Assembly: GCA_000165345.1 (NCBI GenBank) | Contig: CM000434.1 | Span: 192,001-256,000 of the forward strand | Direction: 5' to 3' | DNA length: 64,000 bases | Shown here: positions 6,786 to 10,930 of the stretch, one piece after another | Numbering within the stretch: the stretch's first letter is position 1 | How the letters are laid out: the number at the start of each line of letters is the position of its first letter | The notes under the pieces: generated by a model | The model's database searches: none | Told to the model about the DNA's origin: nothing | What the model saw: only the letters and a program-made list of their open reading frames with translations | Translations under genes and position numbers: made by a program

Positions 6786-8901
6786 TCAATTACGTGATCT
6801 ACCTAACAACAATATAAATAGTATTACTAGTAATCCAACAGCCAGTCCAGAAGATGTACCTAAAATGATATTAAACTTGTTATCAGATGAAATTGTACAG
6901 TTTCTACCATAAAATCCTTCTGCACATTTACAATAATATCCATCGTTGCCTATATTAAAACATTCACCACTATTCTGGCATATTGGTTCTAACTGAGTAT
7001 CACAAATTCCCTCGCATCCTGAACATTCCACAACCTGTCTTAACTGATTAGATGACGGACATGCAGTACCTCCATTCATTGCCTCCCTCACAACTACTCT
7101 ATATCTTGATTTGGTTCCCTCGCATAAAAACTTTGAGCAACCAGTCCAAGGAGACCAAAAAGAGAGAACACAATCGACTGGGCATGGAGAAGAATTACAT
7201 GAAGATGTTTCTTTAAGCAAAGAATCACAACCAGGAGCAGAGTGGGTCAATTCTCTTGTCCTGATTGTAAGCCCTCCGTCACAAGAAGCTGAGCAAGGAG
7301 ACCAACTTCCCCAATCAGTGAATCCACATGGCAAACACTCCACATCCGAATTACAAGCAGAAATCTGGGAAGTTATAGTACATTCTAATCCTCCTGCCAT
7401 AACCTCATTTAATGGATATCTCCATCTATAAGTTGTTCCACCATTGCAAGTACTTGTACAAGGAAGCCAAGATGACCATTGAGAATACTCACAATCCAAT
7501 GTAGATATTGCAAATCTTGTAGTTGAATACACTCCTGCTTCATTTGGATAAATTAATCCTACTGATTCTGGTTTATATGAGTGCACTCCACAATGAAATA
7601 TGGTTCCCAATGACCATAATGACTCTCTTACAAAAACGTCAACTCCGAACTTTTTGTTAATCAATATCGACTATAAAGATGAGAGAAGAAAAAATATAAA
7701 AAGTTAATCAATTTTGAAATGTTAAAATTCTTATTAAGATCATTTTCCAAGCCTATCATGCTTCTTCCTTTTTCTTCCTCTCTCTCTCTCTCTCTCTCTC
7801 TCTCTCTCTCTCTCTCTCTCTCTCTCTCTCTCTCTCTCTCTCTCTCCCTACCTCAATAAATAGGCTTATTATCTTAATAATCATAAGTAAACTTACATTG
7901 AAAGGTTGACCTGGATTATCAAAATCAAAAGGATAATCTCCACTAACTGTATAACTTGTACCACTTAATAATACACCCGAACTTAAACAATATGAATTAC
8001 TTGACAAAGTTGCAAAAAATCCATTCATTCTATAATAAAACTGACTCTGATCGCTTGTAAATACTGCTACTGTACCTCCCCATCCGTATCTTTTATCATT
8101 AACTGGATACATACTTGCTGAATGTAGATGTATTTCTAGTTCTTCTGGCCAAGATTTATAATTTTTTGGAATTCTATCACCATTTGGTACTCCAGATTTC
8201 TCATCAATTCCGGTACTATTTACATAATACAAATTTTTATCATCAAAATAGTATCTTTGTTGAAATTCATCCCAGAAATAAGTCCTTCTATAAGGATCTG
8301 CCAAAGGAACATTTCTTGTAATTTTATATTTACTAAAGTTATTTTGTCCATTACCAAAAGTTAATTTATTCACATTTGAATACACTATGCTATGACAAGG
8401 ATAATATGGTCCACTTCCTGAAATATAAAAGTAAAACCCTCCTGGCCATCTTAATTTCTCAACTACCAAGTCAAGATCCATCAATTTTGGCTTATACGGA
8501 AATGGAAAGTAAGCATAAGATCTAGCCCATCTCTCTTCTGAAGTATATCCTGTAGATTCCACATCTACTGTTTGTGCTGCAAAATTTATCATCAACTTAC
8601 AGTGGTATAAATCACCATTCTGAATTGTTACCAAAGTTTCTTTATCATTTTCTGCGTTAAATTTACCCACAATCCTAAAAGATACTCCAGAATACCAAGG
8701 TAGCTTATTTGAACTAAATGTATATACTAACCCTTCACTGGTAATATCTTTCCATGCTTTTGTCCAACTGAAACTTGGTGGTAAAGAATTTATTTCTAAA
8801 ATATTAAATATAAGAATATGTATTAATATAAAATATAAAATTCTTCTTATTTTCATAAACTTTAAATCATATTGTCTAAATTCTAACATTTTTCTTTTCA
8901 A
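6786..8901 (-). CDS. TSP1-EGF-TM surface adhesin A, in two exons: join(8901..7897, 7670..6786). The order is signal peptide, ~300-aa N-terminal domain, 3 thrombospondin type-1 repeats, one EGF-like domain, TM helix and a very short tail.
   Basis: The ORF 7756-8901 ends ...PFN directly before a GTAAGT donor. Its ERERER tail is read-through of an intronic (CT)n repeat. An acceptor ttatag sits before 7670, and the downstream frame opens in phase 0 into the ORF 6786-7664. Exon 1 is 1005 nt, a multiple of 3. The TSP1 motifs are WSSWLPCTSTCNGG, WGSWSPCSASCDGG and WSPWTGCS. The EGF has a 6-Cys CxC..C..GxxG pattern, followed by a TM LAVGLLVILFILLL. Confidence 0.7.
7778..7846. repeat. (CT)~34 / (GA)~34 dinucleotide microsatellite lying inside the intron of adhesin A.
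   Basis: Direct reading of tctctctc... over ~68 nt. Confidence 0.9.
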
Positions 8902-9479
8902 CTTTGTTTTGATTACATTGAATTAAAACCTTTTATTGGTGTTTTGAAACTAATTAAAATTAATTCTTCTTTCCATTCATGAATTATTCAATCCTTATTT
9001 ATAGCCAATACTTTTACTTAATTTAAAAGAATACACCAAATGTGATATTATTCAGCAACCTTTAAAAAATATAATTTTATTAATAATATAATTTTAAATT
9101 TAATACTTTTCTCTGTGTGTGTAATTTATCCTATTATCAACTCCTTTTCCCATGTTCAATTTAGATTAATATTTATTTCAATATTAAACAGCAGGTAATA
9201 GGTACCATTTCAGCCCGCCAAAACATGCCCCACTTATTTCCAATATTATTATCAATGCTGTATAAGTAATATAAATAATATAATAAGAATAAATATAAAT
9301 ATGATCCATGTAATAATATATTAGATAAATTAAAATTTATCTATAATTTACCATTATTTTAGTTAAATTAATAATTTATTAGAATTTGTGAAGGATAATA
9401 AATATTAATCCATCGAAATAAGCTTTATGTTTTAATTACAATTATCCAGAATTAAGGTTTAATAAAGAATTCATGCTCA

Positions 9480-10930
9480 ATGTTGTCTTGCCATATTATT
9501 AATGGCATAATATTAATTGGTTTATTATTTTTTTTAAGATTTGATAATATAAGTTCACAAATTGCAGATTTTCGTCTGCCTGAAACTCGCTTATGCACCA
9601 ATCCATATACGTAAGTTTGACGTAATTTTCTTTAAAAAAAATAACTTTATTTGATTATTTGTTTATATTTTAAAAATGAATTTCTAGTTTTGGATTTGCA
9701 ATAGAACAAGATACTGATATTCAATTAATAGATGATGATATTTGGCCTTTAAATCAAGTCTTCTCTGCCGGTGGTAGTATTTCTGACAATGGATTCCAAA
9801 TATTGTTTGCAACCGCAAAAAAAAATTCTTATGAATTGATCATTTCAGTTTATCCATTGCTCACTACAGTAGTAAGAGAATGTACTTATGAAGGAAAAGT
9901 TGTAAGAAGGCTTAAATCCGTAGTAGAACATTCCCCAAGATTTGAAAAATGGCCATTCTTTGATAAGTGGGTTATTAGCTTTCAAAGACAAGAATATGGA
10001 ATTTCAATTTCTTTTAACCAAGGTTATACTGAATCTTTATTTTGGAAAAGATGTCTAAATGAACCAATAGTCAGCGTTAAGGTAGAATCAAAAGATGCCT
10101 ATCTTTCAGCTGACCAAGTTGATTGTATCGTATCAGAATGGAGTTCTTGGTCCCAATGTAGTTCAAGTTGTCAGATAGGTACTAGATCAAGAACTAGATT
10201 AATATTAAGACCAGCTTCTTTTGAAGGTACCACATGTCCAAACTTGATAGAAAATGAAGGATGTAACACTAGCATATCTTGTGAAGATTGTGCCTATTCT
10301 TCTTGGTCTCCTTGGAGTGAGTGTAGTGTTACTTGCCAAGGTGGATTTCGTTCTCGAACTAGAAAGCTGATTTGGAAATCTGACATTAAAGGGAGATGTG
10401 AAGATAATGAATCAGATATAGAATCTTGTAATGAACAAAGTTGTCCAGTAAATTGTAGACTCTCAAGCTGGACTTCATGGAGTATATGCTCTTCTACTTG
10501 TGGTCCAGGTAATAAGATGAGATATAGAATTATTTTAGCTCAATCAGATCTTGGTGGAGTACAGTGTCCGACAGAAAAGGAAATTACTGAGCGTGCTTCA
10601 TGTCAACTTCAAGAATGCGAAAAATCTTGTTCAACTGGAGAAATTTGCAAAAATGGTGGGACTTGTATTGATATCCCTAATAGCGGTTTTTCTTGTGAAT
10701 GTGCTGAAGATTATTTTGGTAAATTTTGTGAACACAAGAAATATAGCTGGTGGGTTTATTTTGTTTTTTGCATTGCTACACAAATTATTATTGGAGCAAT
10801 TGTAAAGAGTACATTCCTTTCAAGACCTGCACCAATTACTGAAACGCCAGTTACTTACAACCAAGAATATGCTTTCAATGATTATCCGACAGCATTTGAT
10901 CAAAATACTGACATTTCTGGTGTTTTTTAA
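9480..10930 (+). CDS. TSP1-EGF-TM surface adhesin B, in two exons: join(9480..9610, 9688..10930). The order is signal peptide, ~140-aa N-terminal domain, 4 thrombospondin type-1 repeats, EGF-like domain, TM and a ~35-aa cytoplasmic tail.
   Basis: The ORF-track 'M' at 9803 is a TTG. The frame stays open back to 9688, preceded by a tttctag acceptor. A GTAAGT donor lies at 9611. The upstream exon ATG 9480 encodes MLSCHIINGIILIGLLFFL..., which is signal-peptide-like. Splice phase is consistent (131+1243=1374 nt). The TSP1 motifs are WSSWSQCSSSCQIG, WSPWSECSVTCQGG, WTSWSICSSTCGPG plus one more. An EGF (CSTGEICKNGGTC...CECAEDYFGKFCE) is followed by a TM. Confidence 0.65.

Follow-up and report, generated by a model that had tools for sequence, protein, structure and literature searches.

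Positions 6786..10930 of the window (a 64,000 nt stretch of contig CM000434.1, assembly GCA_000165345.1, forward-strand positions 192,001 to 256,000) hold two known genes of Cryptosporidium parvum chromosome 6, CpTSP8, also named CpMIC1 (cgd6_780, minus strand), and CpTSP9 (cgd6_800, plus strand), which diverge from a shared 590 nt spacer. Both had been correctly rebuilt in a preliminary description drawn up from the sequence without database searches, and this assignment is regarded as nearly certain (probability about 0.97). Coordinates are given as positions in the window, which is AT-rich (about 30% G+C).

Identity and structure of CpTSP8 and CpTSP9

Along its whole length, the spliced product of the minus-strand gene showed 100% identity to CpTSP8 (EAK90179.1/XP_627453.1; 625 aa, from ATG 8889), and translation from ATG 8856 gave exactly the protein of two 614 aa entries, AAC16621.3 ('sporozoite cysteine-rich protein') and QOY40956.1. 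The gene is thus the same as CpTSP8/CpMIC1 (cgd6_780; Q5CXK1) in sequence, intron and location, and the only difference among the entries is the choice of start codon. The spliced product of the plus-strand gene was an exact-sequence match to the 457 aa CpTSP9 (EAK90180.1/QOY40957.1; cgd6_800; Q5CXK0), with no difference. The gene identifiers and the location on chromosome 6 are published for both (PMC12368253; PMC13095730). The gene order of the window, namely a rhomboid gene, a 71 aa CDC26-like gene, a 258 aa gene, TSP8, TSP9 and a BRCT-domain gene, is kept in three C. parvum chromosome 6 assemblies. Given the exact matches, the published identifiers and the same gene order, the locus is a re-discovery of two described genes. 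Their introns, domain architecture, micronemal location, the idea that they are rhomboid substrates, and the microsatellite in the CpTSP8 intron are likewise already known. As CpTSP8 is a fitness-conferring vaccine candidate, accurate gene models and domain maps matter, and both are in the literature.

The features of the locus are as follows (TSR, thrombospondin type-1 repeat; TM, transmembrane).

6786..7670, minus strand: CpTSP8 exon 2, encoding the end of the N-terminal region, the TSRs, EGF domain, TM segment and tail; stop codon 6786..6788
6789..6800, minus strand: CpTSP8 tail, RSRN (exon 2)
about 6801..6869, minus strand: CpTSP8 TM segment (exon 2)
about 6897..7019, minus strand: CpTSP8 EGF domain (exon 2)
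about 7020..7499, minus strand: three TSRs of CpTSP8 (exon 2)
7671..7896, minus strand: CpTSP8 intron, 226 nt, GTAAGT...TTATAG, phase 0
7778..7846: (GA)34.5 microsatellite inside the CpTSP8 intron
7897..8889, minus strand: CpTSP8 exon 1; ATG 8889 gives 625 aa and ATG 8856 gives 614 aa
about 8308..8754, minus strand: CpTSP8 galectin-like domain, from a structure model (exon 1)
8785..8856, minus strand: CpTSP8 signal peptide, MKIRRILYFILIHILIFNILEINS (exon 1)
8890..9479: shared divergent intergenic region, 590 nt, presumably a bidirectional promoter
9480..9610, plus strand: CpTSP9 exon 1, encoding the signal peptide (9480..9557) plus 17 residues and stopping 2 nt into codon 44
9611..9687, plus strand: CpTSP9 intron, 77 nt, GTAAGT...TCTAG, phase 2
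9688..10930, plus strand: CpTSP9 exon 2, from the galectin-like domain to the tail; stop codon 10928..10930
about 9689..10114, plus strand: CpTSP9 galectin-like domain, from a structure model (exon 2)
about 10118..10618, plus strand: three TSRs of CpTSP9 (exon 2)
about 10619..10729, plus strand: CpTSP9 EGF domain (exon 2)
about 10745..10804, plus strand: CpTSP9 TM segment (exon 2), followed by a 41 aa tail

In the list of open reading frames (ORFs) for 5500..12500, CpTSP8 is represented by a 381 aa ORF with a hydrophobic leader (7756..8901, minus strand) and a 292 aa ORF full of WxxW/CSxxC motifs (6786..7664, minus strand). CpTSP9 is represented by a 44 aa ORF with a leader (9480..9614, plus strand) and a 375 aa ORF rich in cysteine and tryptophan (9803..10930, plus strand). 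It had been stated that calling ORFs alone would split CpTSP8 and lose the leader of CpTSP9, and the raw-assembly entries are of this kind: a 347 aa read-through of exon 1 and the 292 aa exon 2 ORF of CpTSP8, and the 375 aa exon 2 ORF of CpTSP9. The models of the preliminary description, including both splice junctions, coincide exactly with the current reference annotation. They are better than the older chromosome 6 annotation and the ORF-only calls in public assemblies, and the present check served mainly as quality control. The divergent arrangement of the genes was also described correctly. Their distance, given as about 580 nt, is 590 nt between the start codons and 623 nt when counted from ATG 8856. 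ORFs of up to 106 aa on the opposite strands of 6786..10930 were rejected as genes, being antisense within conserved coding exons, with no gene called there in any assembly inspected.

The 11-residue extension that distinguishes the 625 aa model of CpTSP8 has no backing from the orthologue alignment. In C. canis the model has no extension of this kind, and in every TSP8 orthologue model aligned the hydrophobic leader stands directly before the conserved SLPPSF. Thus, as judged by the alignment, the 614 aa start looks more likely than the 625 aa start.

Splicing and the ML2 microsatellite

Support for the introns came from comparison of orthologues and isolates. In CpTSP8, a GTAAGT donor follows directly after 7897 and a TTATAG acceptor ends at 7671, and in CpTSP9, a GTAAGT donor follows 9610 and a TCTAG acceptor ends at 9687. 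Both splices are in frame (phase 0 and phase 2, respectively). TSP8 of C. felis and C. bovis contains a single GT-AG intron (88 and 65 nt, respectively) at the same codon (...QPF[NS]/xILI..., phase 0), the intron sequences being unrelated. The intron of TSP9, at ...NPY[TS]/FG... (phase 2), measures 68 nt in C. felis and 112 nt in C. serpentis. The residues flanking each junction are conserved or invariant among eight species for TSP8 and nine for TSP9, those at the TSP9 junction being invariant. In four C. parvum assemblies, the TSP8 intron is 226, 220, 208 and 206 nt long with 34, 31, 25 and 24 GA units, respectively. The difference between the longest and the shortest (20 nt) is not a multiple of three, which rules out that the stretch is coding. 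The comparison therefore points to one intron in each gene, at a position kept across the genus (an identical codon in four to five Cryptosporidium species), and the splices originally proposed, 7897/7670 (minus strand) and 9610/9688 (plus strand), gave products that match the database proteins exactly.

That the genes are unspliced, with each ORF standing for a separate or truncated gene, can be dismissed almost entirely. ORF callers do yield other products, and so does the older chromosome 6 annotation, which uses other splice sites to give CAD98627.1 (338 aa; QPFNVSLLNKKFG in TSP8) and CAD98628.1 (437 aa; QIADFHTDIQLI in TSP9). However, exon 2 of CpTSP8 has neither a signal peptide nor an upstream ATG, the junction residues (QPF[NST]/xILI and NPY[TS]/FG) are kept across species while the intron sequences are not, the microsatellite changes in length in 2 nt steps, and the current annotations agree with the spliced models. 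The conserved junction residues also favour the junctions of these models over those of the older annotation.

In C. serpentis, TSP8 has the same conserved intron plus two more upstream. The gene (6001..8159 of sequence L001) is annotated with three introns, and the extra two lie inside the region of the galectin-like domain, after residue 69 and after ...HCKLS. Only the conserved intron is present in the intestinal species, which suggests either that their lineage lost the other two or that the lineage of C. serpentis acquired them.

The C. hominis TSP8 protein has been reported to be only 86.9% identical to that of C. parvum, and this was ascribed to a frameshift in C. parvum (PMC10034466). 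Comparison of the spliced window model with C. hominis TSP8 gave 98% identity between 625 aa proteins, with no frameshift evident.

Subtyping of C. parvum makes use of the CpTSP8 intron, which is the dinucleotide microsatellite ML2. ML2 is described as an AG repeat on chromosome VI (GenBank AF344880; 180-237 bp), and the primer sequences are given in Table 1 of PMC4746124. These primers match the window exactly at 7877..7900 (minus strand) and 7668..7688 (plus strand), in each case directly over an exon-intron boundary. The amplicon, 7668..7900, is 233 bp in the window, a (GA)34 allele, and 227, 215 and 213 bp in three other C. parvum assemblies.

Domain architecture and age of the gene pair

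Each protein consists of a predicted signal peptide, a galectin-like beta-sandwich, three TSRs, one EGF domain, one predicted TM helix and a cytoplasmic tail. Pfam searches revealed TSP_1 and TSP1_spondin in three stretches and a single EGF domain in each protein, and every match exceeded its gathering score. The scores for CpTSP8 and CpTSP9 were 90.3 and 133.8 bits for TSP1_spondin (PF19028; cut-off 41), 59.1 and 89.6 bits for TSP_1 (PF00090; cut-off 21.6), and 28.2 and 34.9 bits for EGF (PF00008; cut-off 21.5). The description of the products as members of the Cryptosporidium TSP family was supported, type I membrane topology being predicted. Hydrophobic stretches are seen in the sequence at both the N- and the C-terminus, and the orthologues retain them; UniProt TM ranges for both proteins are quoted in PMC13095730.

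Several details of the preliminary description needed amendment. Its count of three TSRs holds for CpTSP8, but the count of four for CpTSP9 does not, as both the Pfam stretches and the WxxWxxC motifs, of which there are exactly three in each protein, give three. The N-terminal regions, put at ~300 and ~140 aa, extend over about 355 and 160 aa, respectively, from the signal peptide to the first TSR. The short tail ascribed to both proteins is found in CpTSP8 (four residues), while that of CpTSP9 comprises 41 residues.

The two N-terminal regions had been called unrelated, which is correct at the level of sequence. No similarity between them was detected by BLASTP. Comparison of the N-terminal orthologue alignments by hhalign (TSP8 with TSP9, and the halves of TSP8 with each other) gave probabilities of <1%, with low power as the alignments are shallow (effective number of sequences, Neff, below 2). 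A search with the TSP8 N-terminal profile against 1.84 billion representative proteins retrieved only its own orthologue cluster, with no link to TSP7, TSP9 or any protein outside Cryptosporidium. A single hhalign match at 90% was rejected as an artefact of overlapping slices. The regions are not unrelated in fold, since structure models predict that both begin with a galectin-like beta-sandwich, in agreement with PMC10034466. A third member with galectin-like, TSR, EGF and TM parts, CpTSP7 (cgd5_4470), is described in the same paper; it has two TSRs and is encoded on chromosome 5.

Between the galectin-like domain and the first TSR, CpTSP8 carries a further 200 residues or so (about 184-377 of the 614 aa form). 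This segment, encoded within 7671..8307, has many invariant aromatic and Gly/Pro positions, no Pfam match, and no relatives outside Cryptosporidium.

That the genes are paralogous was borne out over the TSR-EGF block. In a BLASTP comparison, CpTSP8 and CpTSP9 are collinear over the three TSRs and the EGF domain, with 36% identity over 206 aa (E 9e-35). The head-to-head TSP9/TSP8 pair is also present in the C. serpentis, C. felis and C. bovis assemblies that were compared, where it is flanked on one side by the BRCT-domain gene and, two genes away on the other side, by a rhomboid gene of 900-990 aa. Both introns accompany the pair in these species, and the intron positions of TSP8 and TSP9 are not homologous to each other. 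From this shared arrangement, the duplication predates the split of these lineages, so that the TSP8/TSP9 pair is an old one, formed before the Cryptosporidium species compared diverged.

Proposed role, alternative readings and neighbouring sequence

The micronemal location of the proteins is in agreement with the literature. CpTSP8 is equated with the micronemal CpMIC1 in Putignani 2008, as far as that work is cited in PMC10034466 and PMC8710574, and is regarded as micronemal from immunofluorescence evidence. Both proteins are listed as micronemal in Table 2 of PMC13095730, which cites hyperLOPIT data. CpTSP8 is C-mannosylated on the third TSR and N-glycosylated at an NST site encoded in exon 1 (PMC10034466), and an in vivo CRISPR screen placed it in the high fitness-conferring class (PMC12368253). 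Oocysts and sporozoites have high TSP8 expression and later stages low, and the reverse applies to TSP9 (PMC13095730, Table 2); 79% of the relative expression of TSP8 was recorded at 2 h post-infection (PMC3305300).

Microneme discharge would bring CpTSP8 and CpTSP9 to the apical surface of the zoites, where the ectodomain may bind putative host or mucus ligands and might later be shed by an intramembrane rhomboid protease. Such shedding would be more plausible for CpTSP8 because small residues abound in the outer part of its TM segment, GTSSGLAVG, whose G and S do not vary among eight species. The argument from small residues put forward earlier for rhomboid cleavage thus applies to CpTSP8, but not to CpTSP9, whose TM segment (YSWWVYFVFCIATQIIIGAIV) has no cluster of small residues at its outer end. 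CpTSP8 is most likely an attachment or complex-forming adhesin, and the paralogues appear to divide labour by stage, CpTSP8 serving oocysts and sporozoites and CpTSP9 the intracellular stages.

A number of results weigh against these proposed functions or limit them. No match to galectin or any other Pfam family was found in the N-terminal regions, even at E 10. The sugar-binding signature HxNxR/WxExR, sought as a regular expression and not by structural alignment, is absent from all seven and all eight orthologues of the two proteins. Residues 161-354 of the TSP8 N-terminal region have a predicted local distance difference test (pLDDT) score below 50 in the AlphaFold2 model. Both proteins appear on a list of candidate rhomboid substrates (PMC13095730, Table 2) that is an in-silico proposal only. 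In comparison with animal galectins (PF00337), CpTSP8 and CpTSP9 share the modelled beta-sandwich fold but have neither a sequence-level match nor the signature, and lectin activity of the galectin-like domains is for these reasons doubtful.

A different use of the galectin-like domains has to be considered in this connection. In Toxoplasma gondii, M2AP binds a TSR of MIC2, and the galectin-like domain of MIC1 binds an EGF domain of MIC6. The same types of module, galectin-like with TSR or EGF, are there on separate polypeptides that assemble, whereas they are on one chain in CpTSP8 and CpTSP9. The galectin-like domains may thus be modules for protein-protein assembly that dock on the TSR or EGF domains in cis or in trans and are not lectins, the proteins being self-contained or complex-forming scaffolds; this is a real but minority possibility. 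A more specific proposal is that CpTSP8 and CpTSP9, with CpTSP7, are single-chain equivalents of MIC2-M2AP and MIC1-MIC6, the galectin-like domain being an intramolecular or trans docking module and not a lectin for host glycans. A separate proposal is that the position of the rhomboid gene cgd6_760, kept in four species two genes downstream of CpTSP8, could stem from a pairing of enzyme and substrate. Both proposals are drawn from fold similarity and synteny only and are rather improbable. A role as TRAP/MIC2-type gliding adhesins that couple host ligands to the actomyosin motor, implied when a function in gliding was first ascribed to the pair, is improbable. CpTSP8 and CpTSP9 share with Plasmodium TRAP and Toxoplasma MIC2 the TSRs, micronemal location and candidacy as rhomboid substrates, a signal peptide and a single TM helix are predicted for them, and the conserved 41 aa tail of CpTSP9 is mildly acidic (five acidic residues), with a terminal aromatic residue kept across species. 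However, the tail of CpTSP8 (RSRN, with no acidic residue and no tryptophan) does not exceed two to four residues in any of the eight species aligned, two of which have just RS or RT, and this would leave no direct coupling to the motor; this reading is already disfavoured for CpTSP8. The tail of CpTSP9 likewise contains no tryptophan, so that the sub-terminal tryptophan of TRAP/MIC2 is missing from both, and no vWA or integrin I-like domain was found in Pfam scans of either protein at E 0.1 to 10. The TRAP-like gliding model is thus at odds with CpTSP8 and CpTSP9 in two defining features, the vWA domain and the acidic, tryptophan-bearing tail.

The pair had further been taken to suggest diversification of host-binding specificity. 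A recent inverted duplication undergoing such diversification is highly improbable, and as regards its being recent is already refuted. The head-to-head orientation, the collinear TSR-EGF block at 36% identity and the divergent N-terminal sequences would fit it, but the pair, its orientation and both introns are found in C. serpentis, C. bovis and C. felis, the orthologues are 42-98% identical with many invariant columns, and the paralogues' intron positions are not homologous. Moreover, purifying selection acts on most CpTSP genes, and CpTSP9 shows no polymorphism (PMC10034466). Stage-timed expression, which is the reported difference between the paralogues, combined with the age of the pair and purifying selection, fits poorly with ongoing diversification of host specificity. 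Any reuse of the preliminary text should accordingly state that each protein has three TSRs, that the galectin-like fold is common to both, that the tail is too short to couple to the motor, and that the duplication is ancient.

The rhomboid gene of the window is located on the same strand as CpTSP8:

331..3303, minus strand: rhomboid protease cgd6_760, 990 aa, named CpRom1 in PMC13095730 and CpROM3 in PMC8710574

It is encoded some 3.5 kb downstream from CpTSP8, and CpTSP8 is in turn among the candidate substrates of rhomboids. A rhomboid gene is found two genes beyond TSP8 in C. serpentis, C. felis and C. bovis as well, which may simply reflect general synteny.

Two further features were noted beside and between the genes.

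5262..6038, minus strand: 258 aa ORF, rich in Q/N and Cys, directly downstream of TSP8; no Pfam family, a gene call in C. parvum assemblies
9214..9221, minus strand: E2F-like TTGGCGGG site in the TSP8/TSP9 spacer

The position of the 258 aa gene is occupied in C. serpentis, C. felis and C. bovis by a gene of 159-295 aa without a Pfam match. Rfam and tRNA scans of the region, including the spacer, gave no hits. The E2F-like octamer TTGGCGGG occurs in eight copies in the window, at 4112, 4390, 6566, 9214, 20868, 32908, 47492 and 57753, as compared with 0.11 expected from shuffled sequences. The copy at 6566..6573 lies between TSP8 and the next gene.

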